Positions 4,420 to 59,735 of a DNA stretch of 64,000 nucleotides are shown in pieces (the first letter of the stretch is position 1; the number at the start of each line of letters is the position of its first letter). This stretch comes from Akkermansia muciniphila (GTDB lineage: Bacteria; Verrucomicrobiota; Verrucomicrobiia; Methylacidiphilales; CAMAQI01). The notes under the pieces were generated by a model. It was not told the DNA's origin. It did no database searches and saw only the letters and a list, made by a program, of their open reading frames with translations. A program made the position numbers and the translations under genes. The stretch spans positions 11 through 64,010 of the forward strand of contig CAMCYL010000003.1 of NCBI GenBank assembly GCA_945883905.1, given 5' to 3'.

Positions 4420-4444
4420 TTTAATTCTAAATAATCCCATTTCA

Positions 4445-4830
4445 TGCATTAGGAATTTAAAAAATGGAGCGCCGCCGGCTTGGCGGCATGGATCAGGGGT
4501 GGATTTAACCCCGAAAGCATCCGCATTGGCGTCAAGCTAACACAAAAAAAGACAGTTTTTTAACCGCGGGGTAAACGGAGGCCAACGGAGGAAAATTCAA
4601 TTCGCTATTTATTTGAATGCCAAATCAACTGCCTTTTTTTCCCTATTAAAAACAGTATTCACCTCCGTTTCCCTCCGCTTACCCCGCGGTTAAAATTGTA
4701 GTTTCTCTTCCCCTTAAGTTGACGGCTATGCGATCCGTCAGATGACGGACGGGGTTAAAGGGTGAGGAGGAAAAGTCAAAATACCCCCCCCTTCGCCCAT
4801 GCCGCCGGGCCGTCGGAGCTCCATTTCTTT
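4445..4830. repeat. Family-2 nested-palindrome intergenic element (full copy, about 385 bp)
   Basis: Outer inverted repeat aaatggagcgccgccggcttggcggcatgg (4462-4491) pairs with ccatgccgccgggccgtcggagctccattt (4798-4827). Inner inverted repeat ttaaccgcggggtaaacggaggccaacggagg (about 4559-4590) pairs with cctccgtttccctccgcttaccccgcggttaa (about 4662-4693). A further pair is ggatttaaccccg with cggggttaaaggg. A second partial copy lies at 41812-41892. Confidence 0.85.
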
Positions 4831-7156: not shown

Positions 7157-7774
7157 TTAAGGAGCGGAAACAGGATCTTCCGACCAAAGATGCCCCATCG
7201 GCAGACGATAATAGGTATAAATTCCCTCTCCTTTTTTTCCTTCAACTCGGTAGGGACCTGTGAGTTCTTCGCAATCGACTCCGATGAGCTGCGCGGCATT
7301 GGGGCCGATATGACAGCGATTTCCACTACCACTGGAGGAGATTCGATGGGCATAGTTAATAGGGGGACCGATCAGTAAGATTTGTTCGCCGATCGCTTTA
7401 CTGGAGACTTGCGAGATATCCATCCATCCGTATTCGAGGGCAATTTTGAGGCTAGGACCTTCGGGGAAGGGCCATTCAAAATTACTGGTGGGATCGTTGA
7501 GAATAGAGCACTGTCGAGCCACTGCTTTTGCGATTTGAGCAGAGCATTCAAGAACTTCGGTTCTATTTTTAAGAATGGCAATAAAGGCATCTCCCATGAA
7601 CCCAATGACATGACCGTTATGAGATTCAACCGCATTGACTCCCTCTTTAAGGACATCGGCAATTCGTTTGGCGATATTTTCACCGAGCGATCGATCAACG
7701 AGAGTGGTGAATCCGTTGATGTCAACGAGCATAGCAAAGGCTTGGATCGAGCCATGGCGTGGAAAATCGGACAT
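7157..7774 (-). CDS. Standalone class III adenylate/guanylate cyclase catalytic-domain protein
   Basis: 205 aa. The metal-binding Asp contexts LVDINGFT and GFMGDAFIA are present. So is the Asn/Arg transition-state motif PINYAHR, the equivalent of VNxAAR. Confidence 0.75.
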   Translation of the reverse strand: MSDFPRHGSIQAFAMLVDINGFTTLVDRSLGENIAKRIADVLKEGVNAVESHNGHVIGFMGDAFIAILKNRTEVLECSAQIAKAVARQCSILNDPTSNFEWPFPEGPSLKIALEYGWMDISQVSSKAIGEQILLIGPPINYAHRISSSGSGNRCHIGPNAAQLIGVDCEELTGPYRVEGKKGEGIYTYYRLPMGHLWSEDPVSAP

Positions 7775-7857: not shown

Positions 7858-8339
7858 CCGGCCAAAACGAATCTGGATTTGAGAGGGGAATTAGAGGAGG
7901 GGGATTGAAATTCTAAAACAGTTCTCGCGCAACGACGCGACGCCGCAACGTCAGAGAAGGAGAGGATCGTGAGCTCTTTCCTTTCGGCGCCTCCAGAGAA
8001 TCTCTCCCGTTTCTTTGAAAAAAGGATTTTCAAAAAACGATCGAGTTTCTCTGGAGGGGATCGGTTTCACCTCTCCTCGGAAAGAGCTCACGATCCTCTC
8101 AGTGGTAAATTCTCGGATTTTTTTGTATGAAATGGGGGGGAGTTCTGATCCCAAGAGCGTAAGCGATATATCCCTGTTTTTAAAAAGAGATCGAAAGCTC
8201 GTTTTCGAGAACTTTTTAAAAATAGGAAGGAGGCTCGCAAGAGCCGTGGTCAGAACGAAGGGGGAGGTAGGGATTTAACGTGGCGTCGTCGCGTCGTTGC
8301 GTGAGACAATGTATTTAAGTTTTTTAGTGGACAGTAATG
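7858..8339 (+). repeat. Family-1 nested inverted-repeat intergenic element, copy A (longest, about 480 bp)
   Basis: Long-range inverted repeat cgcaacgacgcgacgccgcaacgt (about 7927-7950) pairs with acgtggcgtcgtcgcgtcgttgcg (about 8278-8301). A perfect 22-bp inverted repeat gagaggatcgtgagctctttcc lies at 7960-7981 and 8079-8100. Further internal hairpins are present. The element is homologous to 10235-10522, 11956-12015 and, reverse-complemented, 33371-33740. Confidence 0.9.
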
Positions 8340-8377
8340 CTCTTTCCCATTTCTATTGAAAGTCAATCAGAAGATTC

Positions 8378-8845
8378 TCAGGAATGCATGAGACCAAAGA
8401 TCTCTTCGACTGCTTTTTTGCGGTAGGCAAAGATTTTCTCGAGTTGAGGGCGAACCAAAATTGGATGGGCCATCTGTCCCAACCAACCAAAGGAGAGGCC
8501 GTAATGAATTCGATCGGTGATTAAGGTTCCCCCGGGAATTTCTGTAAAGTGATGTTGGTGATGCCAAAAGCGATAGGGGCCAAACCGCTGTTCATCGACA
8601 AAGAGAAAGGGGGCCTCGACGTGGGAGATCTCCGTGATCCATTGGAGTCTGATTCCAGGAAAAGGAGAGACCCGATGCGTGATGATCATGCCTGGATGAA
8701 CCTCCTCTTTGCCGAGATGATGGGATTGAAATCCGAGAGCGGGGGGAGTGATTTTTGCGAGATTATTGGCATTGCTAAAAAAACGCCATAATTCTTGGAT
8801 CGGGACTGGGGCCTTTTGGGTGACTTCAAGTTCGTAAAGTTTCAT
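8378..8845 (-). CDS. SRPBCC-superfamily ligand-binding protein (cyclase/dehydrase-like)
   Basis: 155 aa. The pattern WRFFSNANNLAKITPP ... FVDEQRFGPYRFWHHQHHF is typical of this small SRPBCC family. Confidence 0.65.
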   Translation of the reverse strand: MKLYELEVTQKAPVPIQELWRFFSNANNLAKITPPALGFQSHHLGKEEVHPGMIITHRVSPFPGIRLQWITEISHVEAPFLFVDEQRFGPYRFWHHQHHFTEIPGGTLITDRIHYGLSFGWLGQMAHPILVRPQLEKIFAYRKKAVEEIFGLMHS

Positions 8846-9031
8846 CGAGAGGAGACTGACAGAGATTTAATCCCTGTCAAAGAAAGGGAATTTTAGAGGC
8901 GAATTCTTTTTCAGTGAGAGAAGCGTAACAAATTATCAAATAAGGGATGAAAACCGATGGAATACAAAATTGGGTTGTTTTAGCCTTGGGATTGTCTTAA
9001 GGTTTTTCTTCCTTTTAAAAAAAGAGTTTGA

Positions 9032-10162
9032 ATGAGTGACTTCTATTATTTTGATAACAATGCGACCACGGCGATTGCCCCTGAGGTATTTGAGGGGATG
9101 GTGCCGTTTTTGACGGAGCATTATGGGAATCCTTCGAGTGCCTACGGTTTTGGGAAGAGGGTTCGAATTGCCGTGGAACAGGCGAGGTCTCAGGTCGCTG
9201 CCCTGATTAATGCGGATCCGAGTGAGATCTATTTTACGAGTTGTGGAACGGAGGCGGATAATACGGCGATCTGGTCGGCCTTACGGTCATCAAAGAAAAA
9301 GCATATCATTACCTCCCAAGTCGAGCATTCGGCTATTTTGCATATGGGGGAAAATCTGGAGCAACAGGGATATGGAGTGACTTGGCTTGCGGTCCGCTCG
9401 GATGGAACGCTCGATTTAGCAGCGTTGGAGGAGTCGATTCGTCCGGATACCGCGGTAGTTTCATTGATGTGGGCGAATAATGAGACGGGGGTCCTTTTCC
9501 CGATTGAAAAAATTTCGGCAATCTGCCGCGAGAAAAAAGTTCTTTTTCATACCGATGCCGTTCAGACCCCTGGAAAAGTGAAGATTGATGTGAAGAGTGT
9601 TCCTGTTGATTTTTTAGCTCTTTCAGGACACAAGTTGCATGGTCCGAAGGGGGTTGGTGTTCTGTATGTGCGAAAAGGGGTTCCGTTGATACCCTTTCAG
9701 ATTGGCGGAGGGCAGGAGCGCGGTAAGCGTGCGGGGACCGAAAACGTTGCATCGATCATTGGATTAGGCAAAGCGGCGGAAGTGGCGCAGGAGGGGTTGA
9801 TTGAGGAGCAGACTCGAGTCCGAGCGATGCGAGATCGATTTGAAAATCGAATCCTTGAACTCATTTCCGGAGTACGAGTGAATGGAAATCGGGAGGAGCG
9901 ACTGCCGAATACCTCGAATCTCTGTTTTACGGGCGTCGATGCGCAAGATTTACTGGCGGCTTTAGATGCTCAGGGGATTTGTTGTTCTGCCGGTTCTGCT
10001 TGTACCACGGGATCGGTCGAGCCCTCGCATGTGTTGAGTGCGATGGGGGTTTCGGAGCGTGACGCTAAAAGTTCCTTGAGATTTTCCTTTAGTCATTTTA
10101 ATCAGGAATCGGAGATTGATCGGGCATTGGAGATTATTCCAAAAGTGGTCGGGAGTCTTTGA
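9032..10162 (+). CDS. nifS: Cysteine desulfurase, NifS-type (class V aminotransferase)
   Basis: 376 aa with PLP-lysine motif SGHKLHGPKG, active-site Cys loop CSAGSACTTGS, and N-terminal FDNNATT. Confidence 0.9.
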   Translation: MSDFYYFDNNATTAIAPEVFEGMVPFLTEHYGNPSSAYGFGKRVRIAVEQARSQVAALINADPSEIYFTSCGTEADNTAIWSALRSSKKKHIITSQVEHSAILHMGENLEQQGYGVTWLAVRSDGTLDLAALEESIRPDTAVVSLMWANNETGVLFPIEKISAICREKKVLFHTDAVQTPGKVKIDVKSVPVDFLALSGHKLHGPKGVGVLYVRKGVPLIPFQIGGGQERGKRAGTENVASIIGLGKAAEVAQEGLIEEQTRVRAMRDRFENRILELISGVRVNGNREERLPNTSNLCFTGVDAQDLLAALDAQGICCSAGSACTTGSVEPSHVLSAMGVSERDAKSSLRFSFSHFNQESEIDRALEIIPKVVGSL

Positions 10163-10234
10163 CGTCATCTCGATCAAGCGTGGATTTTGCCCATGTTTTA
10201 GGCAAAGTCTTTAGATTGAATTTTGTCGGATCGA

Positions 10235-10522
10235 CCGTCAAAAATAAGTTTTGATTTGATCGGTGAATTAGAGGAGGGGGATTGAAATCCTAAAGCAGTT
10301 CTCACGCCACGCCGCGACGCCGCAACGTCAGAGAGGGAGAGGATCGTGAGCTCTTTCCTATCGGCGCCTCCTTTGTCGACTACCGCCTCCCGAGAATCTC
10401 TCCCGTTTCTTTGAAAAAAGGATTTTCAAAAAACGATCGAGTTTCTCTGGAGGGGTTCGGTTTCACCTCTCCTCGGAAAGAGCTCACGATCCTCTCAGGG
10501 AGAAATTCTCAGATTTTTTATA
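10235..10522 (+). repeat. Family-1 element, copy B (left approximately 60 percent only; abuts the stop codon of the NtrC-type gene)
   Basis: It aligns with copy A from ccgtcaaaaat...gaattagaggagggggattgaaat through the 22-bp inverted-repeat pair (ggatcgtgagctctttcc / ggaaagagctcacgatcc) to aaattctcagatttttt. The right-hand part of copy A is missing. Confidence 0.85.
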
Positions 10523-11930
10523 GAATTTTTTTCAATGTGGCTTTATTGATTCCAAGGATTTTTGCGGCTTTGGATTCATCGTTGTCAGAGGCGTGAAGGG
10601 CGCGGATGGCGAGGGCTTTTTGGACGGTTTCGATCAGGGGGGAGTCGGCGTTTTGACGGAGGGATTCGAAGAGTTGATCGAAGAGCTGTTCTTGATTGGG
10701 GGTCGAGAAACTTTGAGGGGAGGAGGAGGCGGTGGAAGAGGCGGTTGTGACTCGGCCTTTTGTAAATTCTTTGGGGAGATGATGGGGGAGAATCGTGGAG
10801 CCGGAGGTCATGACCATGCAGCGTTGGAGGCCGTTTTCGAGTTCGCGGACATTTCCCGGCCAGGAATTCGATTGGAGGATCTCTAAGGCTTCCGCCGAGA
10901 TTTTGGAGGGGGAGTTGGGTGTTTTGAGGCGAATCTTATTCATGAAGTATTCGACGAGAAGAGGGATATCGCCCGTCCTTTCTCGGAGAGGGGGCAGATC
11001 GAGATGAACGACGTTGAGGCGGTAGTAGAGATCCTCTCTGAAACTTTTTTTCTCGACCATTGTGAGTAGATCTTTATTCGTCGCCGCGATAATCCGGACA
11101 TCGGTTTTCATCGATTCGTTATTTCCAAGGCGTGTGAATTCCCCTTCTTGGAGAACCCGTAGAAATTTAGCCTGAGTGGCAAGGGGCATTTCCCCGATTT
11201 CATCGAGGAAGAGAGTCCCGCCGTCGCATTGTTCGAATTTGCCGATGCGTTGATTCATCGCTCCGGTAAAGGCCCCTTTTTCGTGTCCGAAGAGTTCGCT
11301 TTCGAGAAGGTTATCGGGAATTGCGGCGCAATTGAGAGCGACGTAAATGTTTTTGAATCGAGGACTATTTTGATGAATGGCACGAGCGACAAGTTCTTTG
11401 CCGGTTCCACTTTCTCCGGTGATTAAAACGGTGGCGGGAGTGGAGGCGACTTGACCGATGATTTTATAGACCTCCTGCATGGGAGGCGCATTTCCGATAA
11501 TGGTTTGACGAAGCTCTTCGGCAGAAAGTTTTGTGGGAAAAGTGGTGACCTCTGTTTTTTGAGTGAGGGCGGCTTGAAGGGCTCGGGCGATGAGCGCTTT
11601 GAGTAAGGGGATATCAAACGGTTTTAAGATATAGTCGTAGGCTCCGAGCTTCATGGCTTCGATTGCGGTTTGTGAGGTCCCGTAAGCGGTCATGACGATG
11701 ACGATTTGCTTTGGGTTATGGAGTCGGAGTTCACGGAGTCCATCGAGTCCGTTGCGATTTCCCATCCGGATATCGGTGACAATCAGGTCTGGGTTTTCGG
11801 CTTTTGCGAGTTTAAGTCCGGATTCAGGGGAATCGGCGGTGAGGATTTCGATCGGCTCTTTTTCCAGGAGTCGTTTGAAGGAGTAGTGGACATCGGCTTC
11901 GTCATCGATGAGGAGCAGTTTTTGTTTCAC
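10518..11930 (-). CDS. Sigma-54-dependent response regulator (NtrC family: REC + AAA+ + Fis-type HTH)
   Basis: 470 aa. REC domain (LLIDDEADV...DLIVTDIRMGN), Walker A GESGTGKELVARAIH, GAFTGA motif ESELFGHEKGAFTGA, and C-terminal HTH SKAAKILGINKATLKKIL. No histidine kinase is adjacent. Confidence 0.95.
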   Translation of the reverse strand: MKQKLLLIDDEADVHYSFKRLLEKEPIEILTADSPESGLKLAKAENPDLIVTDIRMGNRNGLDGLRELRLHNPKQIVIVMTAYGTSQTAIEAMKLGAYDYILKPFDIPLLKALIARALQAALTQKTEVTTFPTKLSAEELRQTIIGNAPPMQEVYKIIGQVASTPATVLITGESGTGKELVARAIHQNSPRFKNIYVALNCAAIPDNLLESELFGHEKGAFTGAMNQRIGKFEQCDGGTLFLDEIGEMPLATQAKFLRVLQEGEFTRLGNNESMKTDVRIIAATNKDLLTMVEKKSFREDLYYRLNVVHLDLPPLRERTGDIPLLVEYFMNKIRLKTPNSPSKISAEALEILQSNSWPGNVRELENGLQRCMVMTSGSTILPHHLPKEFTKGRVTTASSTASSSPQSFSTPNQEQLFDQLFESLRQNADSPLIETVQKALAIRALHASDNDESKAAKILGINKATLKKIL

Positions 11931-11955
11931 AAAAACGGATATTAGGAGTCACTTC

Positions 11956-12015
11956 TGTCCAAAACAAGTTTTGATTTGCGATGGGAGCGCGTGAGACAAT
12001 GTCTTTAATATTTTT
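11956..12015 (+). repeat. Family-1 element, mini copy D (left end fused directly to right end)
   Basis: gtccaaaacaagttttgatttg (left-end homology) is followed after about 10 bp by gcgtgagacaatgtctttaata (right-end homology to 8299-8320). Confidence 0.7.
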
Positions 12016-12067
12016 CATTCAAACTGACCCCAACTGGACTGTGACCCCGGTGACTCCAGTGCACCGA

Positions 12068-12093
12068 GTCAGGCTGATGCCTGACGGCTTTTT
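12068..12093 (+). terminator. Intrinsic-terminator-like hairpin with no upstream plus-strand ORF
   Basis: gtcaggc (12068-12074), loop tgat, gcctgac (12079-12085), then ggcttttt (12086-12093). Confidence 0.4.
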
Positions 12094-12197
12094 GACTTTA
12101 AAAAATAAAAAATCCGCATGATGGGCTGAAGGGCTAAACGATTACTGCAGAGAAAAAGAAACTCGACTTAAAAAAATCTCTCTAGCACACTGTATAT

Positions 12198-12428
12198 ATG
12201 GTTAATATCCTCAAAGACATTACGGTCAAAGCCGTTCAATTACCACGACACCAACGTCTAGTGTTGGCAGGTTTTTTACTTGATATGGACGGGCCTGACC
12301 CCAAAGAGCTTGACCAAGCATGGGATGTCGAGATCAAAGAAAGAGTTAAGGCCTTTGATGCAGGCTTAATTCAATCAGATTCTATCGAAGTGATTCAAAA
12401 AAAGATGAAAATGCGCTTTGCGCAATGA
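12198..12428 (+). CDS. Putative addiction-module antitoxin component
   Basis: 76 aa. The pattern LPRHQRLVLAGFLLD...ELDQAWDVEIKERVKAFDAGLIQ matches the small 'addiction module component' antitoxin family. Its stop overlaps the toxin start (ATGA). Confidence 0.75.
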   Translation: MVNILKDITVKAVQLPRHQRLVLAGFLLDMDGPDPKELDQAWDVEIKERVKAFDAGLIQSDSIEVIQKKMKMRFAQ

Positions 12429-12721
12429 AGATAAAAATTATCCGACCTGCCAGTAATGAATTGATCAGGGCAGTTGAATACTACGAAAGTGAGCAAGCCG
12501 GTTTAGGGCTTCGATTTTGGAATGAAGTCGACGAATATATTCGGTGGATAAAGTCTAATGCCACTGTTCCTCGGCTTCGCTCAAATTTATATCGACGTGT
12601 GAATTTGAAAATATTTCCATATCATCTTGTGTATTCAATAAGAGAAAAGAATATCATCATTTGGGCTGTAGCTAACAGCCACAAGAAGCCCGAACATTGG
12701 AAATCAAGAATTAGGAAATAA
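12425..12721 (+). CDS. Type II toxin, RelE/ParE superfamily
   Basis: 98 aa. A.ELIRAVEYYESE...FPYHLVYSIREKNIIIWAVANSHKKPEHW is typical ParE/RelE-like. There is a 4-nt overlap with the upstream antitoxin. Confidence 0.8.
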   Translation: MKIKIIRPASNELIRAVEYYESEQAGLGLRFWNEVDEYIRWIKSNATVPRLRSNLYRRVNLKIFPYHLVYSIREKNIIIWAVANSHKKPEHWKSRIRK

Positions 12722-30278: not shown

Positions 30279-31694
30279 ATGATTGATCTACGTGGAAAGC
30301 ATGAAAAACAGATGAGTGGTGTGACTTCAAAACCTCGTTTCCGTGTCCTCGGATTAGGACGTGCGGGGATTTCGATCTTGGATCGTTTAGTGCTTGGGGG
30401 GCTTGAGCATTTAGATATGGTTGCGCTTGATACCGATGAGCAAACTTTATTAAGTACGGTTTTACAACGTCGCTTGCTTTTAGGGGAAAAAATAGCGGGG
30501 GGACTGGGATGTTGGGGCGATGCGCAACGCGGTTATGAAATTGCCCAAGTGGAACAAGATTCTTTGAGGCTGATTCTCGATGGCTGTGACTATCTTTTAA
30601 TCGCTGTGGGTTTTGGAGGGGGAACCGGAGGGGGAGTTCTTCCAAAGATTTTAGAGATGGCACAGGCAGAGCGAGTTCAAACCGTGGTCTTTGGTACCCT
30701 TCCGTATGCCTGTGAAGGAGAGGGACGTACGACTCTGGCCTTAGAGCAATTGCATCAGGCTCGAAATTTTGCCGATTGTGTTCTCACCTCCTCTCACGAA
30801 CGATTAACTCCATTTTTTACCAGAGAGGCGAATCATCGAAAGGGATACGAATGGATGCATCAGATTGAATCAAAAGTAATCTATAGTATTCTCATGCTTT
30901 TGGAACAACCGGGGCTTTTTCCTCTCAGTTTTGCCGATTTACGAAGTCTTTACGGACGACTTCAAGGAAGTCAGACCAGTGAAAACTGTTTGATTGGATA
31001 TGCCGAGGGAACTCTTGGCGTGGATAACGAGGCCTTATTGGATGATCTTTTAGAGGGACCTTTACTCGCCGGTGAAGATGTTTGGCGCGAGATGGATCAT
31101 GCCTTACTTTCTGTGAGCGGAGGTAAAGAACTTTCAGTGCTCGAAATTCAGGAGATCATGCGACAGATCCAAAACCGTTTTGGTCGCCCGATTCCAGTGG
31201 CTGTGAGCGCCCATTTTGAGGGACCTCAGGATGGAAAAATCCGACTGACCTTGATGCTGGCAAAAACAATCGAAGTGGAGATCTCTGAACCGGTTAAAGA
31301 GCGAAAGAGTTCACTTCCTGTATCGGTTAAACAGGATCTTTCACTCTCGGCGAGAGTCGATTTTGAACCGGTGATTATTTTAGAGATGCCAGAACAGTTC
31401 GATTCAACTCCTGTTTTAGTCCCCACCACTCCCGTGACGCAGAGGAGTGAGGCGGGTGAAAGGGTTCCTGTTTTAGAGGAGAGTGCCCCGGCTGAATTTG
31501 CTTTTGAAATGGGGGAGGCATCTGGGGTCACTGCAAAGAGCAAAAAATCAAAATCGAAAAAAGTGAAACAAGCGGAGCTCTCCTTGGAAGTTCCGAACCG
31601 CGGTCGATTTGAAAAGGCCTCCGAAACCTTCTGGAAAGGGGAAAACCTCGATCAACCGACCTTTAAAAGACGTTCCTTGTACGTTCGACTTTAA
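30279..31694 (+). CDS. ftsZ: Divergent FtsZ
   Basis: 471 aa with tubulin signature GGGTGGG (aa 113-119, nt 30615-30635). Several loops are non-canonical: GLGRAG for GVGGGG, GLGCWGDAQRG for G.GAGANPEVG, and LSFAD for NVDFAD. A long acidic/Pro-rich linker follows, then the C-terminal peptide LDQPTFKRR (compare DIPAFLR). The alternative start is ATG 30312. The 3' end overlaps convergent cimA by 32 bp. Confidence 0.85.
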   Translation: MIDLRGKHEKQMSGVTSKPRFRVLGLGRAGISILDRLVLGGLEHLDMVALDTDEQTLLSTVLQRRLLLGEKIAGGLGCWGDAQRGYEIAQVEQDSLRLILDGCDYLLIAVGFGGGTGGGVLPKILEMAQAERVQTVVFGTLPYACEGEGRTTLALEQLHQARNFADCVLTSSHERLTPFFTREANHRKGYEWMHQIESKVIYSILMLLEQPGLFPLSFADLRSLYGRLQGSQTSENCLIGYAEGTLGVDNEALLDDLLEGPLLAGEDVWREMDHALLSVSGGKELSVLEIQEIMRQIQNRFGRPIPVAVSAHFEGPQDGKIRLTLMLAKTIEVEISEPVKERKSSLPVSVKQDLSLSARVDFEPVIILEMPEQFDSTPVLVPTTPVTQRSEAGERVPVLEESAPAEFAFEMGEASGVTAKSKKSKSKKVKQAELSLEVPNRGRFEKASETFWKGENLDQPTFKRRSLYVRL

Positions 31695-33249
31695 TGAGAT
31701 AAAATTCGATACTATCGGTGAGCGCCAGCCATGAGGCATCGATGATATTATCGGAGACCCCGACGGTGTTCCATGTTTGAGTGCCGTTGCTCGATTCGAT
31801 GAGAACTCGAGTCTTTGCGGCCGTTCCCGCATTCGAATTTAAGATCCGAACTTTATAATCAGTCAAACGGATCTCCGCAATTTTAGGATAATATTTAACG
31901 AGCGCCGCTCTCAGAGCTGCATCCAATGCGTTAATCGGTCCGTCTCCTTCCGAAACGGTATAAAGCGTTTCGCCGTTGATTTGAATCTTCACGGTTGCTT
32001 CGCAGGCATCAAACGGATGTTCTGATTTGCGACGAAAGGAAACATGATACTCGACTAATTCAAAGAACGATTTCTGTTTCTGTAACGCTTTGCGAATCAG
32101 GAGTTCAAAGGAGGCATCTGCCGCCTCAAATTCATAGCCTTTGTTTTCAAGACTCTTGACTTGATCCAAGATGACTTTGGTTTCAGGGGCTTTTTCATCT
32201 AGTGCAATCTTAAGTTCCCGTGCCTTCAACATGACATTGGTACGACCGGAAAGTTCGCCAATGAGAATGCGCTGGGCGTTGCCGACGAGTTCCGGAGTAA
32301 TATGTTCGTAGCTCGTGGAGGTTTTATTGATCGCATTGACATGGGTTCCCCCCTTATGGGCAAAAGCGGCGGTTCCGACAAAGGGGGCACGGATATTGTG
32401 GCGTTGGTTGGCGATCTCATCGACATAAAGCGAGAGCTCCCGAAGTTTTTGCAGACTTTCTACGGAGACCACCGGATACCCCATTTTCAATTGAAGATTG
32501 GGAATCACCGAGATCAGATTGCAGTTTCCGACCCGCTCTCCAAATCCGTTCATGGTTCCTTGGACTTGTAACGCTCCTTCCTGAATTGCGGCGAGGGCAT
32601 TGGCAACGCCACAACCGCTATCATCGTGGGTATGAATTCCTAATTTTGTCGAAACAAGAGGGATCAAATGACGAACGACCTCTGCGACTTGTGAGGGAAG
32701 AGTGCCTCCATTTGTATCACAAAGTACCACGTAATCCGCTCCCGCCTGTGCCGCCGCTTGTAGGCATTGGGTGGCATATTCTGGAGAATCTTTAAAACCG
32801 TCGAAGGCATGTTCGGCATCGTAAATAACTTCTCGTCCATGAGATTTCAAAAAACGAACGGTATCTGCGATCATTGCGAGGTTTTCTTGAGGAGTCGTTC
32901 TTAAAACCTCGGTGACGTGGAGAAGCCAGGTTTTTCCGTAGATCGTGACTACAGGAGTTTCTGATTCCAAGAGAAGTCGGACTTGGGGGTCCTCTTCGAC
33001 TTTGACTCCCGCTTTACGTGTACTTCCAAAGGCGGCGAGCTTTGCTTTTTTAAGTTTTAACGATTTTGCCTGTTGAAAAAAATCGATATCCTTGGGATTA
33101 GATCCCGGCCATCCCCCTTCAATATAATGGACCCCAAAAAGATCGAGACGCTCGGCAATTCGAATCTTGTCGGCTAACGATAGATTGATTCCCTCTCCCT
33201 GCGTTCCATCCCGCAGTGTCGTATCGTAGATCGTGACCTGATTTTGCAT
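31663..33249 (-). CDS. cimA: (R)-citramalate synthase (IPMS/homocitrate synthase family)
   Basis: 528 aa. The N-terminus VTIYDTTLRDGTQGEGINLSLADKIRIAERLDLFGVHYIEGGWPGSNPKD is CimA-type, and HTHDDSGCGVANAL is present. Confidence 0.88.
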   Translation of the reverse strand: MQNQVTIYDTTLRDGTQGEGINLSLADKIRIAERLDLFGVHYIEGGWPGSNPKDIDFFQQAKSLKLKKAKLAAFGSTRKAGVKVEEDPQVRLLLESETPVVTIYGKTWLLHVTEVLRTTPQENLAMIADTVRFLKSHGREVIYDAEHAFDGFKDSPEYATQCLQAAAQAGADYVVLCDTNGGTLPSQVAEVVRHLIPLVSTKLGIHTHDDSGCGVANALAAIQEGALQVQGTMNGFGERVGNCNLISVIPNLQLKMGYPVVSVESLQKLRELSLYVDEIANQRHNIRAPFVGTAAFAHKGGTHVNAINKTSTSYEHITPELVGNAQRILIGELSGRTNVMLKARELKIALDEKAPETKVILDQVKSLENKGYEFEAADASFELLIRKALQKQKSFFELVEYHVSFRRKSEHPFDACEATVKIQINGETLYTVSEGDGPINALDAALRAALVKYYPKIAEIRLTDYKVRILNSNAGTAAKTRVLIESSNGTQTWNTVGVSDNIIDASWLALTDSIEFYLIKVERTRNVF

Positions 33250-33370
33250 AAGGGGATCAGAAATAGCTCATTTTCACCAAAAGACAAGGATCAGGCGAAG
33301 CTGCCTTTTACTCATGGGAGAGGGGAACCCGATTCAATCACGCTCACTCGACTTCTCGCCTTGTTCAAAA

Positions 33371-33740
33371 CATTAGTGTCCAGCTAAAACAAAAAAAACT
33401 TAAATACATTGTCTCACGCAATGACGCCACGACGCTACGTTAAATTCCTACCCCCCCCTCGTTCTGACCACGGCTCCTCTGAGCCTCCTCCCTATTTTTA
33501 AAAAGTTCTCGAAAACGAGCTTTCGAGCGCTTTTTTAAAAACAGGGATCTATCGCTTACGCTCTTGGGGTCAGAACTTCCACCCCCCTTCATAAAAAACA
33601 ATCCGAGAATTTTCCTTTGAGGAGATCACGATCCTCTCCCTCTCTGACGTTGCGGCGTAGCGTCGTTGCGCGAGAACTGCTTTAGGATTTCAATCCCCCT
33701 CCTCAAATTCACCTCTGAAATCCAGAGTTGTTTTGGACGG
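33371..33740 (-). repeat. Family-1 element, copy C (reverse orientation, about 370 bp, lacks the 22-bp-inverted-repeat hairpin module)
   Basis: Its reverse complement aligns end-to-end with copy A (ccgtccaaaac...gaggagggggattgaaatcctaaagcagttctcgcgcaacgacgc ... gcgtgagacaatgtatttaagtttttt...ctggacactaatg). The exception is about 120 bp corresponding to 7974-8093. Confidence 0.9.
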
Positions 33741-33754
33741 TAGAGTGTTCAAAA

Positions 33755-35635
33755 TTATTTTTTTAACTGAAGTTTTTTTCTTTTTCGATGGCGATGGAGT
33801 TCGATGCTTGCAACAAGCAGGAGGAGGAGGATTCCTCCGATGATATTATCCGATTCAGGAATTGCGCTGGAAAGAGCCACGAGCTCATTGCCAACGAGAG
33901 TGGCCCCCACTCCATAACCTGAAAACTGGATTTGAGTGAGAAAGGCGGGAGTGAATCCGCTGGTATTGGTAAAATAAAGTCGATCGGTTCCCCCCGCGGT
34001 CCAGTTGCTCACCGTCAGAATCGATCCTCCGACGCGATTAATCGAGGCGAAGGTAAGCGTGCTCGCTCCGGCTCCCATGTCGATCGTGGAATTCGTAGAG
34101 AGTGTCAGGGCCCCCATGGTTTCTGACATCGTGCCGGAGGCGGCGATCGTTCCACCGTTGAGATTTACAGTGGCGGCGTTATTGATTCGATCGGAGACAC
34201 CCGTTCCACTGAGGAGAAGAGTGCTGCCGGCATTGATCGTAAGGGCGCTTGTTGATCCGAGCGCATTTGTGACGGAGGCGTTGAGGGTTCCTCCTGAGAT
34301 CGTTGTGGCGCCAGTGTAGGTATTGGCTCCAGAGAGCGTCATCGTTCCAGTCCCCGTTTTCGTAACCGTTCCCGCTCCAGAGATCACTCCTGAAAGAGTC
34401 GTTGAGCTATTGTTTCCTCCGGTGGTGAGTGCTCCCCCGGTTCCGAGGACAACCGATCCACTCCCGCCGACCGATCCGACAGTTTCGGTTCGAGCATTGA
34501 GATTCCAACGGCCATCACTATTGAGGGTGAGGCTCGAACTATTGCTAATCACCTGATTTCGAGAGTTTTGGAGAGTCGCTGAATTAGCAGCGCCAATCCC
34601 ATCCCCGATGATAATGTTCCCAAGGATTCCGCTATTGGCATTTGCGGTGGTATTGAGGACAAGCGTTCCATTATTAATTGTGGTCGTTCCCGTATAGGTG
34701 TTATTCGCTGCATTAAAAGTGGCGGTCCCCGTTCCCTCTTTGATTACATTTCCAGTTCCAGTGATTGAGGAGTTAACCGAAAAAGCTCCTGTATTCGCAT
34801 TGAGCGTCAAGGTGTTGGCTCCGAGGGCGATGGAGTCTAATGTCGTGCTGTTTCCAAGTGTAAAAGTTCCGGTGGAAGCGGTGATTGTGGAGTTTCCGCC
34901 AAGCGTAATATTGCCGTTTACAGCGGCGCTTCCTCCTGAATTTCGAAGCGCCCCAAGACCTGCAGAGCCCGTCCCTGTGATCGTGAGATTTTCAGCGTTA
35001 TTGAGAGAAATCCCGGAATTAAGTTGAAGGGTCGCTCCAGATTGAACCTCGGTTCCTGCGGCTCCTGATCCAAGTGCATTATTCTTAGCGACAGCGAGAA
35101 TTCCGCTCGAGACCGTCGTGAGACCGGTATAAGTATTATTTCCAGAGAGCGTTGCTGTCCCAGAGCTTGTTTTTGTAATTCCACCGACTCCGGAGAGCTT
35201 TCCTGAAAGCGTCAGGGCTCCGGTTCCCGTACCACTGAGCGTTGTCGTGCTCAATAAATTGAGAGCATTACTCAGGCTTCCTGTGAATGTCGAATTTTGA
35301 ACAATCGTCGGAGCGGTTCCCGCCATATTAAGGGAATTGCCGCTGACCGAAAAGTTAGCGGTCATTCCTGAGCTAAAGGTGAGTGAATTGATTCGAAAAT
35401 TATTAGCGATATTTTGAACGGTCGCCGGTCGAATTCCTCCTGAAAAAACAATCGCCGTCGTTGAAGAGGATACAGGGAGAACGTTTGGATTCCAATTATC
35501 AGCTTTATTCCAGTTGGCGTTCACCCCTCCGCCATCCCAAATTTGAGCTGGAAGCGGGATTATTAAAATTGCGGTAAAAAGGATAGGGTACAGAATTTTA
35601 CGTCGAAGGGATGAAATGAACGCTGGATTACCCAT
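33755..35635 (-). CDS. Secreted autotransporter-associated beta-strand-repeat protein with PEP-CTERM-like C-terminal anchor
   Basis: 626 aa with a signal peptide (ILYPILFTAILIIPLPAQI). Many repeats have the form GTGTLTLSG.NTYTG.TT...GTL. The C-terminus is IPESDNIIGGILLLLLVASIELHRHRKRKK, that is a PE-motif, a TM helix and a basic cluster. Confidence 0.8.
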   Translation of the reverse strand: MGNPAFISSLRRKILYPILFTAILIIPLPAQIWDGGGVNANWNKADNWNPNVLPVSSSTTAIVFSGGIRPATVQNIANNFRINSLTFSSGMTANFSVSGNSLNMAGTAPTIVQNSTFTGSLSNALNLLSTTTLSGTGTGALTLSGKLSGVGGITKTSSGTATLSGNNTYTGLTTVSSGILAVAKNNALGSGAAGTEVQSGATLQLNSGISLNNAENLTITGTGSAGLGALRNSGGSAAVNGNITLGGNSTITASTGTFTLGNSTTLDSIALGANTLTLNANTGAFSVNSSITGTGNVIKEGTGTATFNAANNTYTGTTTINNGTLVLNTTANANSGILGNIIIGDGIGAANSATLQNSRNQVISNSSSLTLNSDGRWNLNARTETVGSVGGSGSVVLGTGGALTTGGNNSSTTLSGVISGAGTVTKTGTGTMTLSGANTYTGATTISGGTLNASVTNALGSTSALTINAGSTLLLSGTGVSDRINNAATVNLNGGTIAASGTMSETMGALTLSTNSTIDMGAGASTLTFASINRVGGSILTVSNWTAGGTDRLYFTNTSGFTPAFLTQIQFSGYGVGATLVGNELVALSSAIPESDNIIGGILLLLLVASIELHRHRKRKKLQLKK

Positions 35636-37922: not shown

Positions 37923-37944
37923 ATGAATTCAATCGATGAGGATT

Positions 37945-38322
37945 GAAAGGGGAGCGATAAGCCGAATTTTGTCGGCACCTCACTTGCGTGAGATGCGGGC
38001 TGTCATTCCTCTAGGCGACCTGAACCCGAGGTGACCGTTCCTTGCGGAGCGATAGGCAGGCGACCCAGCACCTCTGTTTGGTCTTGCACCCTGTGGGGTT
38101 TCTCGTGCCCCCGCGATTACTCTTGGGGCGGTGGGCTCTTACCCCGCCTTTTCACCCTTACCCCTCGATTACTCGACGGGCGGTTTATTCTCTGTGATAC
38201 TGTCCGTCATCTCCTTCTTTCGAAGGAAATGCCCGTGTTTAACACACGGCGCAGTGCCTTGTGGTGTTCGGACTTTCCTCTTCCTCCCCAAAGGGAGAAA
38301 GCGACAGCCTGCTCCCCTCGTA
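37945..38322 (-). ncRNA. rnpB: RNase P RNA, bacterial type A
   Basis: The minus strand carries three conserved blocks. GAGGAAAGTCCGAACACC is the reverse complement of about 38264-38281. TAAGGGTGAAAAGGCGGGGTAAGAGCCCACC is the reverse complement of about 38131-38161. ACAAAATTCGGCTTATCGC is the reverse complement of about 37955-37973. P1 pairing is GAGGGGAGC (5' end) with GCTCCCCTT (3' end). Ends are accurate to about +/-10 nt. Confidence 0.92.
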
Positions 38323-41727: not shown

Positions 41728-41811
41728 GGGTCAAATGGATTGATGGGGATCTTTTAAGAAGGCCAGAATGCTTGAAAAATAGCTTTGATACAAAGAATTT
41801 AACCCAGTTCT

Positions 41812-41892
41812 TGCATTAGGAATTAAAAAATGGAGCGCCGGCGGCTCGACGGCATGGGCGAAGGGGGGCATTTTAATCTTTTCTTCCTCGAG
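41812..41892. repeat. Family-2 element, partial copy (one terminal inverted repeat plus about 36 bp)
   Basis: tgcattaggaattaaaaaatggagcgccggcggctcgacggcatgg matches 4445-4491. The following gcgaaggggggcattttaatcttttcttcctc matches the reverse complement of 4764-4797. Confidence 0.8.
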
Positions 41893-44114: not shown

Positions 44115-44179
44115 ATTGATTTTAAGGGTTTTTTTGAATGAATTGCAAAAAAAAAATTATCGATTAAGGTAAACCTAAG

Positions 44180-44392
44180 ATGTCCGAAATTATTTTTGAA
44201 ATTAAAGAAGATGAGATTGAGGGGGGGTATGTGGCGACCGCCCTTGGATACGGGATTCATACTCAATCAGACAATCTTCAAGAGCTTCGGAAAAACGTTA
44301 GAGAGGCGGTTGACTGTTATTTTGATGATCACGTTGTTTCCCCGCAAGTAATTCGTTTACATTTTGTTAAAGACGAAGTCTTTGCTCGATGA
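44180..44392 (+). CDS. hicB: HicB-family antitoxin (short form)
   Basis: 70 aa. EDEIEGGYVATALGYGIHTQSDNLQELRKNVREAVDCYFDD is a HicB-like RNase H-fold N-domain. There is a 4-nt overlap with hicA. Confidence 0.7.
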   Translation: MSEIIFEIKEDEIEGGYVATALGYGIHTQSDNLQELRKNVREAVDCYFDDHVVSPQVIRLHFVKDEVFAR

Positions 44393-44631
44393 AAATTCCC
44401 AGAAGTGTTAATGGTTCAGAACTTGTTAAATCCCTTAAGGTTCTAGGCTATTACGTTTCAAGACAAAAGGGTTCACACATTCGAATCACAACTCAATTAG
44501 ATGGGGAGAATCATGAGGTTATTCCACATCATAGTCCGATTAAAATAGGAACTCTTTCGAGTATTCTTAAAAGTGTTGCGATGCATCATAATATTTCTGT
44601 TGATGAATTAATTGAAAAACTAGAGATTTGA
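44389..44631 (+). CDS. hicA: HicA-family mRNA interferase toxin
   Basis: 80 aa. SELVKSLKVLGYYVSRQKGSHIRIT...HEVIPHHSPIKIGTLSSILK is HicA/YcfA-like, with a conserved His in KGSH. Confidence 0.8.
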   Translation: MKIPRSVNGSELVKSLKVLGYYVSRQKGSHIRITTQLDGENHEVIPHHSPIKIGTLSSILKSVAMHHNISVDELIEKLEI

Positions 44632-44738
44632 GCCCTTTTTTAATAGGGGCATTTGAGGGGATTTTGAATTATTTTTTTATTTTGAAGGATTTCAAAAAAC
44701 TCCGTGCTTCTGGGGGTGAGCGGTGATATCTCTTAGGG

Positions 44739-47756: not shown

Positions 47757-48616
47757 TATTATTATTAGGAGGATCAGGGTACGTTGGAGAGGCTTTCCAA
47801 AAGCAATTGAGCCGGCGTGGAATTATTTTTGCTTCGATCGCTCGGCGGGACTGTGACTACACTCAACCGGAAACGCTTCGTGAACTCATTCGGAAAACGA
47901 AACCGCATTTTTTGATTAATAGTGCCGGTTATACAGGAAAACCGAATGTTGATGGTTGCGAGCTGGATAAAGAGAATTGTTTGCTGGGGAATGCAGTGTT
48001 GCCGGGAGTGATTGCTCGCGTTTGTGCAGAGGAAAAGTTGGTTTGGGGTCATGTTTCCTCCGGTTGTATCTATACAGGGGAGCGTCCGGATGGAAGTGGG
48101 TTTAGAGAAGAGGACTTACCGAATTTTAGTTTTCGAACGAATAACTGTAGTTTTTATAGTGGGACGAAAGCGATGGGGGAGGAGCTGCTCGGGGGGTATC
48201 CGGACTGTTACATTTGGCGTTTAAGAATGCCCTTTAATGAGATTGATGGACCTCGTAATTATATCACCAAATTAATGCGTTATGATAAGATTGTGGAGTT
48301 TACGAATTCACTCTCTCATTTAGATGAGTTTGTGAACGCCTGCTGGGAGACGTGGGAACGACGAGTTCCGTTTGGGATTTATAATGTTGTGAATCCTGGG
48401 CCGGTAACAACGAAAGGAGTTGTGGAGCAAATGATTAAAGCCGGAGTTTCGAATAAGAATTTTCAATTTTTCAAGGATGAAGCTGAGTTTATGAAAGTGG
48501 CAGCAAAGGCTCCGCGTTCGAATTGTGTTCTTGATGCCTCGAAGCTTTTGAAATGTGGAATCAAGATGAGTGATGGGTATGAGGCGGTTGAGCGGGCGTT
48601 AAAAATTTGGGTTTAA
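47753..48616 (+). CDS. NAD(P)-dependent nucleotide-sugar 4-keto-reductase of the RmlD / NRS-ER-like family
   Basis: 287 aa with Rossmann fold ILLLGGSGYVG. GKPNVDGCE, GSGFREEDLPNF, FYSGTKAMGEELL, WRLRMPFNEIDGPRNYITKL and APRSNCVLDASKL resemble, from memory, the plant NRS/ER rhamnose 3,5-epimerase/4-reductase family. Confidence 0.7.
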   Translation: MILLLGGSGYVGEAFQKQLSRRGIIFASIARRDCDYTQPETLRELIRKTKPHFLINSAGYTGKPNVDGCELDKENCLLGNAVLPGVIARVCAEEKLVWGHVSSGCIYTGERPDGSGFREEDLPNFSFRTNNCSFYSGTKAMGEELLGGYPDCYIWRLRMPFNEIDGPRNYITKLMRYDKIVEFTNSLSHLDEFVNACWETWERRVPFGIYNVVNPGPVTTKGVVEQMIKAGVSNKNFQFFKDEAEFMKVAAKAPRSNCVLDASKLLKCGIKMSDGYEAVERALKIWV

Positions 48617-48670
48617 TTCCAATGCCTTTCGGTAATTCCTTAAGGAATTGCCGAAATTTTCCTCTGTAGT

Positions 48671-50023
48671 TCATCTTTTTTTTGTGATTTTGAAGAGGAC
48701 ATTCCCTTTTTTATAAGTATTTTTGAGAAGACGATTCCAACCGGAGACGGGTTTTCGAATGGCTCTTGGACAAGAACGTTTTCGTCTTTTTTTTGAGCAT
48801 TGAGACTGAAGAAGTTTGATAAGTCTGGAATGGAGGGTGGCGACTTTATCGGATTCAATGAGATCATGGAGCAGAGACCAGAGAGAGACAAATGCCCTGA
48901 TGAGATGGAGAGTTTTGATAAAGCTGATTTCCAAGAGGGAAGAGGGGAAGGATAGCGAGCAGGCGTTTCTGGCTTGTGCAACAATGCGTTGAGCGATGAG
49001 AAGACAGGCGATTTCTTGTGCGGCGGTGACAAGCGTATGGCTCAAGAGTAAGTCGGATCGACGAAGATCGACCTTGAGTTCTTTGTAGGCGGATTCGTGT
49101 TCCCATCGTTTTGCGTAAAGGGGAATGAGTTCTAAAGCCGGATAAACAAGAGGATCGAGAAGATTAGTCCAAAAGCGAACTCGGATCCATTTTCCGACGC
49201 GGGGTTTAATAAGGGCATGGATTTCACGTAAGAGGATCTTTTTTTGAGATGTATTGTCAAGAGTCTCGATGATCAAGGAGCCGTCGTTCAAAACGTAAAG
49301 CGTTTTAGATTTGGTGTTGGATTTGACTCGAATGAGAAAGGAGGGCTTGGCCTCTAAAGCGAGCAAGCCCGAGATTGTTTTTGGGCAACCATAGTATCGA
49401 TCAGCGATGAGAAGTTAATCGTTTTTTAAATGGGATGAAAGTTGAGAGGAAAGAGCCATTTCAGATTCACCTTCAATGCCGATTTGAGCGGCGAGCGGAT
49501 TATGGGTGCCGAGTTCATAAAGGGCGGAAAGTGAGATCTTTGAAAACGCGGATCCATTTCTTCTGGAGGGGTGTTTGATGGTCATTTTTTTGATTTGAGC
49601 AGAGTTGATCAAGCTCCACTGGGTTCCATCGGTTCCAACAAGCCGGAATGTTTTATAAAAAGAGTCCGGATTGGATTGAGGTTGGGCTAGAGGGCAAAGA
49701 ACTCGCTCAAGCAAGGAGTGGAAAAATGGAAATCCTAGGAGTTGACGTCGTTGACTTAGAGAGCTGTCACAAATTTTTGTTCCCGAGAGTTGGCGCACAT
49801 GGGAGGAGAGTGTCCCCGAACCTTGAAGAACATGAAAAACCATCGAAGCGATCAAAGAAAAAAGACTTAAAACAGAAGGAGCTCCCGCGGAAGATTTTTT
49901 TTGTTGTCGATGAAGAGCCAAAAGGGATCGGGGATGAATGAGCTTGGAGAAGAGGGAGAGAAAGTTGTTTTCGGAAAAAATGGAGGAAGAGATTGACGAA
50001 GGGGGGTGTTGTGATATAGTCAT
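48671..50023 (-). pseudogene. DDE transposase (IS4-like) interrupted by a single in-frame TAA
   Basis: The ORFs 49415-50023 and 48671-49366 are in the same frame. The TAA at 49415-49417 is followed immediately by LLIADRYYG, the first catalytic Asp context. The downstream part contains YAKRWEHESAYKELK, a Y-(2)-R-(3)-E-(6)-K-like motif. Confidence 0.85.
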
Positions 50024-50250: not shown

Positions 50251-50319
50251 TTCCACGAATGAAATTTCGGTAATTCCATTCGGAATTACCGAAAGGCATT
50301 GGGTTTAATTCCCTTTCCT

Positions 50320-51636: not shown

Positions 51637-51649
51637 TTCAAGAGAGCAA

Positions 51650-51862
51650 TTACGCCGGTCCTGCAGATTCGTCAGCTTCTATAATAGAGTCCAACGCTTG
51701 TCGGAAATCTTTGAGTCCGGGAGCCGGGATAATAATCGTATCCCGACGACCATTCACATCTTCGGTGATTCTTAAAAAACGTCCTCTCGGATTCTGTTTG
51801 AGATCAAAAAAGAAACACTTGCGTTCTACTGTAATTTTTTCACTTCGCATCAACTCATCCAT
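51650..51862 (-). CDS. Bacterial PUR-alpha-like (single PUR repeat, DUF3276-type) nucleic-acid-binding protein
   Basis: 70 aa. SEKITVERKCFFFDLKQNPRGRFLRITEDVNGRRDTIIIPAPGLKDFRQAL matches the PUR-repeat pattern (RK.F.FDLKEN.RGRFLRI.E....R..I.IP..G...F). Confidence 0.8.
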   Translation of the reverse strand: MDELMRSEKITVERKCFFFDLKQNPRGRFLRITEDVNGRRDTIIIPAPGLKDFRQALDSIIEADESAGPA

Positions 51863-52026
51863 AAAATATCCCTCCTAATTACTGACATAAAAGACCCTAG
51901 TGGATTATGGAAAGAAGTCAAAAAATTATTATTAGTACTATTGTTACATTGGAGAAACTATTTTTTTAAGATTATACCCTCGGAGGGGTTGTCGACTGGA
52001 GGGGGGATCTCCCAGAGAGAGGGACT

Positions 52027-52722: not shown

Positions 52723-52843
52723 GAATAGCAAAGAGGATCGGCGGATTATGGAAAATAAAATTTATAGTCGAGTGAATCGATCGAGATCTTTACTGTTGAA
52801 TCTTTATTCGAATCGAGGAGTATGGAGTAAGCAGGAAGATAAT

Positions 52844-59393: not shown

Positions 59394-59619
59394 ACAACAT
59401 CTCCCCCATCAAATCATCAGAGCCTCGTAGAGGAGTTAATATTTTTTTTACCGATCGGGGGCGGAGTGTTTCCAATGATCCGGTCTGTTTTATTTTAGAG
59501 TGGCGATAGTCCTCCATGGCCTCCCGAATAAGCTCTGAGGTCGTTCGATCCTGTTGCTTTGAAAAAGCTTGAAAAGCAGCATAAACGGGCTCGGATACAT
59601 TAATTGTTATTGCTTTCAT
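59380..59619 (-). CDS. vapB: Ribbon-helix-helix (CopG/VapB-type) antitoxin
   Basis: 79 aa with an RHH N-terminus: MKAITINVSEPVYAAFQAFSKQQDRTTSELIREAMEDY. Confidence 0.75.
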   Translation of the reverse strand: MKAITINVSEPVYAAFQAFSKQQDRTTSELIREAMEDYRHSKIKQTGSLETLRPRSVKKILTPLRGSDDLMGEMLYDWD

Positions 59620-59638: not shown

Positions 59639-59669
59639 ATTAAGGGGGGTCAACTAAGATTTAGGTCAT

Positions 59670-59707: not shown

Positions 59708-59735
59708 GATATCGGTTTTCAATAGATGAGAGTTC

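Follow-up and report, generated by a model that had tools for sequence, protein, structure and literature searches.

Repetitive extragenic palindromic (REP) and REPIN elements are defined by a unit of 20-40 nt that is itself an imperfect palindrome and that carries a GTAG or CGTC tag; REP dimers form long hairpins, in head-to-head and tail-to-tail arrangements, and these are also found nested inside larger palindromes (PMC3733652). In this study we analysed Family 1, a set of related intergenic elements located in a 64-kb stretch of Verrucomicrobiota DNA. This stretch is referred to as the window, and coordinates given without a locus number are window positions. Family 1 is probably repeated non-coding palindromic DNA, a composite element within a REP/REPIN-, ERIC- or BIME-like superfamily of intergenic hairpins that is specific to Verrucomicrobiota. 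On the best-supported reading, it represents one more dispersed palindromic repeat of a known class, which is lineage-specific, recently amplified, recombining and prone to deletion.

Like the REP, REPIN and BIME elements of Enterobacteria and Pseudomonas, the elements described here are extragenic, non-coding and variable between species. They are made of short units that occur singly or as inverted dimers, which form long hairpins in both arrangements, they are nested in other palindromes and form mosaics with other modules, and they have no target-site duplication. In contrast to REP and REPIN sequences, the units consist of an 18-nt A/T-rich motif and 8-nt periodic repeats, to which Family 1 adds about 330 bp of palindromic cargo. 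No gene encoding a RAYT (Y1 transposase) was present among the window open reading frames (ORFs) scanned. With the ERIC/IRU elements there is a shared architecture, an imperfect palindrome of at least 100 nt over the whole length, situated in transcribed intergenic regions, with size variants that arise by internal insertion or deletion and with either orientation to the flanking genes. However, the taxon and the sequence are unrelated, Family 1 is three to four times longer, and ERIC copies follow a single consensus whereas the subfamilies here share only a terminal motif.

Two further groups were compared. The Correia/NEMIS elements of Neisseria and the RUP elements of Streptococcus are miniature inverted-repeat transposable elements (MITEs), and they resemble Family 1 in being small, non-autonomous, multi-copy and intergenic, with inverted-repeat ends and internal-deletion variants; by analogy, Family 1 may also be able to alter the expression of neighbouring genes. 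These elements have clear terminal inverted repeats that match those of insertion sequences, together with a TA or other target duplication, but neither feature was observed here. The palindrome-associated transposable elements (PATEs), which are derived from IS200/IS605, are similarly dependent on hairpins, have very ends without terminal inverted repeats and produce no target duplication. They differ in keeping two distinct subterminal hairpins and in inserting beside a fixed tetra- or pentanucleotide, whereas no constant word preceded the left ends of the four Family 1 copies.

Four related copies were identified in the window by repeat finders and by reading of the sequence. All were intergenic, they were 85-96% identical, and each was made of nested inverted repeats:

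7858-8343, plus strand: copy A, the full-length composite element, between a cyclase-domain gene (7157-7774, minus strand) and an SRPBCC gene (8378-8845, minus strand), antisense to both.
10235-10522, plus strand, with weak similarity from 10219: copy B, comprising the outer-left module, the left arm (10293-10328) and module H2 (10337-10496).
11950-12040, plus strand: copy D, a short form in which about 33 nt of the outer-left module are fused to the right block GCGTGAGACAATGTCTTTAA (11989-12008), followed by a diverged right outer segment.
33365-33745, minus strand: copy C, the full element without the apical part of H2, between a PATR-repeat gene (33755-35635, minus strand) and the citramalate synthase gene (31663-33249, minus strand), in the same sense as both.

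The first-pass annotation of this DNA had listed four copies at essentially these positions, and the repeat finders, blastn and nhmmer all agreed with it; the shared sequence blocks that it quoted were also correct. Copies A and C aligned over 366 nt with 40 differences (89% identity; blastn E values of 3e-83 and 5e-43), and copy B matched the left 285 nt of A (E = 4e-95). No fifth copy was detected in the window when nhmmer and sensitive blastn searches were carried out with each copy. The copies occurred in both orientations relative to their flanking genes. Copy B, which is placed between convergent gene ends, was truncated in a T-run, and its end coincided exactly with the stop codon of a sigma54 response-regulator gene (10518-11930, minus strand). 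This gene was intact when compared with an 81%-identical orthologue, and copy D began 26 nt upstream of its start. The possibility that B and D constitute a composite transposon around the regulator gene was ruled out, since both ends, left and right, are present in D and are oriented like B.

The modules of the element are as follows, with the coordinates of copy A unless another copy is named:

7858-7915, plus strand: outer-left module (CCGGCCAAAAC...GAGGAGGGGGATTGAAATTCT), common to A, B and C; its first 33 nt or so are also in D.
7916-7951, plus strand: left arm of the core palindrome, consisting of the motif AAAACAGTTCTCGCGC and then an 8-nt periodic stem, CGCAACGA CGCGACGC CGCAACGT.
7960-8100, plus strand: module H2, a hairpin in which a perfect stem of 22 bp (7960-7981/8079-8100) surrounds an imperfect palindrome (7990-8057); present in A and B, 96% identical.
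8173-8226, plus strand: module H3, a palindrome with A/T-rich flanks (TTTTTAAAAAG..TCGAAAGCTCGTTTTCGA..CTTTTTAAAAA) that resembles a terminator on either strand; in C, the corresponding site (33508-33527) was scored on each strand.
8232-8245, plus strand: small hairpin GGCTC-GCAA-GAGCC, with the loop AGAG in copy C.
8278-8318, plus strand: right arm of the core palindrome with the terminal conserved block GCGTGAGACAATGTATTTAA; best match to the arm profile (E = 2.7e-4).
8319-8343, plus strand: right outer segment (GTTTTTTAGTGGACAGTAATG); homology with C stops after TAATG.
10372-10390, plus strand: 19-bp insertion specific to copy B, flanked by the 7-bp direct repeat CGCCTCC.

The long-range GC-rich stem that had been proposed for copy A was confirmed, with 7923-7951 pairing with 8278-8306 (29 nt, 90% complementary, 326 nt apart), as was the local hairpin with its GCAA loop in A and AGAG loop in C. 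By comparison, the outermost terminal inverted repeats of the same proposal proved to be weak; only GTCC...GGAC was truly complementary, giving an inverted repeat of about 5 nt, and the long inverted repeats were internal. Both boundaries were shared by A and C and were roughly constant (CCGTCC... on the left and ...CTAATG on the right). In copy C approximately 120 nt were missing from the apical part of the hairpin equivalent to 7960-8100, with both bases of the H2 stem kept, and copy D had kept one terminus of the core palindrome. The basic unit would be an arm of about 35-45 nt, in which two or three GC-rich repeats with an 8-nt period follow a terminal motif rich in A/T (about AAAGACAWTTnTCACsGC). 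A pair of such arms in inverted orientation would give a long hairpin, and Family 1 would be an arm pair (7916-7951 and 8278-8318) placed around about 330 bp of further palindromic modules, between left and right segments of 55 nt and 25 nt, respectively. As a separate observation, the 19 bp by which B exceeds A comprise 12 nt (TTTGTCGACTAC) and a second CGCCTCC, and could be a slippage duplication or a footprint.

The GC-stem arms were not unique to this genome. Contigs of relatives (the L-numbered loci) were chosen because they encode close relatives of NifS and CimA, and every related Verrucomicrobiota contig fetched contained members of a superfamily of long intergenic hairpins to which these arms belong. 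When the arms of independent hairpins were read from the outside to the inside, they shared the A/T-rich motif and then GC-rich stems with a period of about 8 nt. The stems of the Family 1 arm are given above; those of L082 are CGCAAAGG CGCAAAGC, and L085 has two forms, CGCAGAGG CGCAGAGA CACAGAGG and CGCGGAGG TAACGGAG, with a related form in the window at 4545-4705. The hairpins that share the motif and the periodic stems are:

4545-4705 of the window, no strand assigned: arms AAAGACAGTTTTTTAACCGCGGGGTAAACGGAGG... with their inverted partner; close subfamily relatives are at L093 5430-5823 and L085 7904-8101.
L082 7966-8098: one hairpin.
L085 7906-8100, 11152-11353, 13128-13253 and 20765-20889: four hairpins.
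L086 789-816: one hairpin.
L093 5430-5823: one hairpin.
L094 2690-2874 and 7049-7077: two hairpins.

Outside its training set, the arm profile matched L093 5795-5823 (E = 0.004), L086 789-816 (E = 0.0075), L094 7049-7077, which is at a contig end (E = 0.03), and L091 34-63 (E = 0.09). The two arms within one element were 70-76% identical over 52-63 nt, and much more so in the stem core, compared to 51-67% between elements, which is near the alignment baseline. The terminal motif was conserved among relatives whose proteins are 68-93% identical. Paired arms were found in nine elements, solo arms in copy D and at L096 8895-8935, and a tail-to-tail dimer at L096 9660-9800. When 14 hairpins were classified by the type of intergenic region, about seven lay between tandem genes, three to four between convergent genes and three between divergent genes; there was no bias in orientation or gene context.

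Similar units were present in the isolate LW23 (L096; 61% GC, NifS 68% identical), in which TCACGCAACG was present three times within 1 kb of the intergenic DNA adjoining nifS. Elsewhere, there were four matches to this sequence in the other 95 loci, and the approximately 1.2 Mb of genome-scan loci among them would give about two by chance. The LW23 unit occurred both solo and as a tail-to-tail dimer with the motif facing the loop. By analogy with REP elements (PMC3733652), the arm appears to behave as a unit, either solo or paired in either arrangement. Other short modules were observed beside superfamily hairpins in several genomes, namely CTTAAGTTGACGCCTATGCGA and the hairpin CTGTGCCATTCCCCATTCCATGGGGACAGTGGCTCTTAGTG, and the elements are therefore mosaics. 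Exact scans with the left block GAGGAGGGGGATTGAAATYCTAAA of Family 1 gave nothing in species-representative genomes or JGI metagenomes, and scans with the right block TTGCGTGAGACAATGTMTTTAA gave nothing in metagenome or viral contigs, collections that do not include the source species. There was no match between the element and plasmids or phages by blastn.

Several minor observations concern these hairpins. The CTGTGCCATTCCCCATTCCATGGGGACAGTGGCTCTTAGTG hairpin is a separate conserved module that accompanies superfamily hairpins in two relatives, at L082 820-866 and 7892-7935 and at L093 5855-5900; a remnant of this module may survive as the right outer end of Family 1 (GGACAGTAATGCTCTT). The superfamily hairpin at 4545-4705 is at the centre of a nested palindrome of about 400 bp downstream of murC (4429-4830), which has outer arms at 4459-4502 and 4786-4829 (AAAAAATGGAGCGCCGCCGGC...) and symmetric copies of the module TTGACGCCNATGCG at about 4510-4540 and 4712-4741. 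The outer arm of this palindrome also occurs once by itself, at 41796-41868. In LW23, nifS is flanked by hairpins at L096 8760-8850 and 11609-11705, the arms of which are periodic CTTGGCG / CGCCAAGG repeats; just downstream there is a tRNA gene (12307-12380), followed by an integrase gene and a run of small ORFs, probably a prophage.

In the relatives, the sites orthologous to those of A, B, C and D were each occupied by a different superfamily member in at least one genome. At the site of A, synteny was clear for the cyclase and SRPBCC genes (SRPBCC 91% identical), and the L082 spacer contained a 130-nt superfamily hairpin. At the site of D, next to the 81%-identical regulator orthologue, L085 had a 200-nt hairpin upstream. 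The site of B, downstream of nifS, contained superfamily hairpins in L085 and L087 and an unrelated inverted repeat in L086. The site of C, upstream of cimA, had a hairpin with arms AAGGCAGTTTTTCACCACGGCG... in L094 and other palindromes in L093; in L091 and L095 there was no core palindrome, and a probable, position-specific counterpart of the Family 1 left segment (CCTGTCAAAAACGATTCTGCTTTTGAGGCTGATGGG) was present. An E value of 8e-8 that had been obtained with a left-segment profile was withdrawn as circular, since L091 was in the training set. It was also observed that the gene order departs from that of L082 and L085 exactly around the repeats (8846-12200): accA is missing between the SRPBCC gene and nifS, and the sigma54 regulator gene, which is next to accA in L085, is here downstream of nifS and flanked by B and D.

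The element contains ORFs of 87 and 61 aa, both of which start at TTG. In agreement with the first-pass annotation, which had found no credible ORF, these are artefacts; a concatenated six-frame translation of the element (863 aa) had no homologue among 5.8 billion proteins. No Rfam family matched the element at the gathering threshold, and nothing credible was obtained at E values up to 10. The best covariance-model score on copy A was that of SSRC8_2 (20 bits against a threshold of 72), the microRNA hairpin matches were due to chance, and the related loci gave a single tRNA match only. Signatures of sigma54 promoters, sigma70 promoters, IHF sites and integron attC sites were compared with the conserved motif by eye, and none fitted. 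A terminator consensus scan detected H3 in copy C on both strands; the region of A had one site, in the left arm (7940-7925, minus strand), which was no more than in shuffled sequence.

Both copies folded far better than shuffled sequences, with z scores on the two strands of -8.0 and -11.5 for A and -3.6 and -7.7 for C. Strong folding on both strands is expected of a DNA palindrome, whether or not it is transcribed. Maintenance of pairing was assessed by setting stems on one copy from Watson-Crick pairs alone and then scoring the other copy, which avoids structure-choice bias. For stems defined on A and scored in C, there were five G.U-compatible changes, two A.C and three other mismatches; for stems defined on C and scored in A, there were three G.U, three A.C and nine other mismatches. 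A single double change was found between the stems of A and C, and it led to a wobble pair. The ratio of transitions to transversions between the two copies was 20:20. Divergence at paired sites (5.7%) was half of the overall value (10.9%), as ascertainment alone would predict when stems defined on one copy can show only the changes of the other lineage. There was no evidence of maintained pairing on either strand, at the low power that two or three copies allow. The substitutions between copies look neutral, with pairs broken as neutral decay predicts. RNAalifold, when applied to A and C, kept every varied pair through G.U; this result was rejected, since the structure is chosen to maximise pairs and the Watson-Crick-only test disagrees.

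These results bear on the proposal that Family 1 comprises large structured non-coding RNAs of 370-480 nt, transcribed from the G-rich strand; in favour of a structural role, the first-pass annotation had cited the conservation of stems with variable loops. The very stable predicted folds, the RNAalifold result and the stem with the altered loop (GCAA to AGAG) might be read in this way. However, RNAalifold is biased by its choice of structure, pair-breaking changes were as many as pair-keeping ones in the Watson-Crick test, and the opposite strand surpassed its shuffled controls by an even wider margin. The copies differ in which whole modules they contain and lie in both gene orientations, about 150 kb of sequence from relatives included nothing equivalent to the interior, A had no promoter-like site, and there was neither covariation nor an Rfam match. 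This explanation is therefore very improbable, and kept stems with variable loops lose their value as a sign of a structural role. The related suggestion that the hairpins are selected cis-acting structures, such as bidirectional terminators, mRNA 3'-end stabilisers or insulators, with Family 1 being a sequence variant that overwrote older ones, has more in its favour. It could account for the superfamily hairpins at the orthologous sites, the A-rich sequence that edges the elements on one side and the T-rich sequence on the other, the terminator-like hairpins scored on both strands inside copy C, and the persistence of the terminal motif across relatives with 68-93% protein identity. Against this, three of the 14 hairpins lie between divergent gene starts, where there is no terminator role, and the overall spread is the usual intergenic mix. 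The T-runs are offset from the GC stems rather than directly after them, stems of 30-50 bp with 330 bp of cargo far exceed the needs of termination, and stem substitutions between A and C had no bias toward keeping pairs. By our count, such hairpins are present in about 30% of L085 intergenic regions; at this density four shared sites are only mildly unlikely by chance, and the co-occupied sites are therefore suggestive, not decisive. As an account of Family 1 as a whole this suggestion is unlikely, although a selected terminator or insulator role is possible, being compatible with the repeat reading and not exclusive of it.

Part of the MITE-like alternative of the first-pass annotation was upheld, in that Family 1 is repeated, multi-copy, intergenic DNA. 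As a classical MITE, it would descend from a DDE-type insertion sequence by internal deletion, and its terminal inverted repeats would serve for cut-and-paste movement. Its small size, lack of coding capacity and copy number, the roughly constant boundaries of A and C and the 'ends-only' derivative D fit this description, and the outer end of each arm carries a conserved motif of about 18 nt that is similar to the terminal inverted repeats bound by transposases. The strict form of the idea was not sustained. Target-site duplications, which the first-pass annotation had proposed to look for, were absent from A, B, C and D and from six other well-bounded superfamily hairpins. At the outermost ends the inverted repeat spans only about 5 nt, with the long inverted repeats lying inside the element, and in LW23 it is the loop, not the outside, that the conserved motif faces. 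There was also no transposase among the window ORFs scanned and no match in plasmid, phage or viral collections. We consider a classical MITE origin to be distinctly doubtful. An inverton, in which the 29-nt inverted repeats would be recombination sites around a 326-bp invertible promoter segment upstream of a gene, would explain why inverted repeats bracket a few hundred bp of intergenic DNA immediately upstream of genes. However, the interior had the same orientation relative to the arms in A and C, there was no promoter-like site inside and no recombinase nearby among the ORFs scanned, and relatives have only a short loop between arms of the same type; there is very little to recommend this explanation.

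The reading of Family 1 as a composite palindromic repeat was supported by its pattern of variation. The cimA-proximal spacer was about 70% identical to its orthologue in the closest relative (93% CimA identity), compared to 89% between A and C within the genome; the copies are therefore younger than that species split, or have been homogenised. Copy B shared the diagnostic sites of the left block with C and the state of AAGTTTTGATTTG with D, and it agreed with A (96%) over a 136-nt segment of H2; this mosaic pattern is indicative of recombination or gene conversion between the copies. The variation in size was centred on palindromes, as is expected when long palindromes are deleted from the centre outwards; such variants could alternatively have come from nested insertion into hairpin loops. 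The composite may thus have been duplicated within this genome after the split from the nearest sampled relatives, and the copies may then have swapped segments by recombination or gene conversion. Centre-out deletions would have removed the top of H2 from C, everything between the left segment and the right block from D, and the right half from B. Spread could have been mediated by a trans-acting enzyme of the RAYT or IS200/IS605 type, which would recognise single-stranded hairpins and leave no target duplication, or by break repair at hairpin loci with an ectopic copy as template. Read-through transcripts would gain very stable hairpins, able to stall, terminate or stabilise RNA, with no sign of selection for such an effect.

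A number of observations weigh against the identification of Family 1 as a REP-like repeat. The term family rests on four documented copies, counted in one window, and no mobilising enzyme, either transposase or recombinase, was seen among the window ORFs scanned. The units lack the GTAG or CGTC tags and the small self-palindrome of true REPs, and their arms are direct 8-nt repeats, not stem-loops. The link to LW23 consists of 10-12-nt matches plus architecture. The likeness of the left segment to the cimA upstream region was weak (E of about 0.4 against 1.4 Mb, with a profile of window copies only); permutations within the orthologous spacer reached the observed score in 6 of 500 cases for L091 and in 1 of 500 for L095. 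Finally, the location of all four copies at hairpin sites of relatives could mean that these are conserved functional sites with homogenised sequence.

A bolder version of the repeat reading was also considered, in which the arms would constitute an undescribed, order-wide Verrucomicrobiota repeat superfamily that is read by a dedicated enzyme or host protein, and Family 1 would be an actively spreading composite that enters existing hairpins and forms nests in a hierarchy, without target duplication. We regard this version as improbable. If it were true, propagation by hairpin-targeted insertion, or by break-repair copying from one hairpin locus to another, would be distinct from the RAYT-REP and DDE-MITE systems; unless the propagation mechanism proves to be new, no new class of biology is involved. 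On either version the repeats have practical consequences. They interrupt the assembly of short reads from this lineage, are found where close relatives differ in gene order, and add very stable hairpins to the untranslated regions of housekeeping genes (cimA, nifS and the sigma54 regulator gene). Their recognition as a repeat superfamily averts mis-annotation as ORFs or novel RNAs and supplies a marker with which strains of an uncultured Verrucomicrobiota clade can be typed. LW23 is a culturable system in which mobility and effects on transcription could be tested.

The DNA around the copies is ordinary chromosome, with succinate dehydrogenase genes, murC, ftsZ, priA, birA and the citramalate synthase gene, and with a division and cell-wall gene cluster at 13.5-31.7 kb. 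The sole Rfam match in the window was a bacterial class A RNase P RNA (37942-38320, minus strand; 223 bits). The closest species-representative genomes for the NifS-like protein were Verrucomicrobiota (Chthoniobacterales) metagenome-assembled genomes, at only 62% identity; nearer relatives were found in a large protein collection (NifS 86-88%, CimA 82-93% identity). In the Logan assembly of run ERR5863113, built from public short reads of the same organism, the same NifS gene was on a 1,987-bp contig whose ends lie inside the right block of A and the left block of B, which is a typical assembly break at repeats.

Other features of the window were recorded. The long spacers at 44115-44738 (624 bp), 51637-52026 (390 bp) and 59394-59735 (342 bp) contain no ORF of at least 110 aa, no Rfam match and no repeat-family member. 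Two inverted copies of a 47-nt segment (48613-48659 and 50262-50308), each with its own palindrome (TTTCGGTAATTCC..GGAATTNCCGAAA), bracket 1.6 kb with two ORFs that have no Pfam match (48671-49366 and 49415-50023, both minus strand); this arrangement looks like a small hairpin-bounded cassette. A gene for a ParE-type toxin with a small upstream ORF was found at 12198-12721. At 52748-54540 (plus strand), an AAA_21 ATPase (396 aa) and a DUF4276 protein (211 aa) are encoded side by side, as they are in candidate anti-phage systems. In nearly all 2-kb bins the plus strand had a positive GC skew (maximum 0.33), even where most genes are on the minus strand; the skew fell close to zero at 32-34 kb, the location of the inverted copy C, and again at the window's right end.

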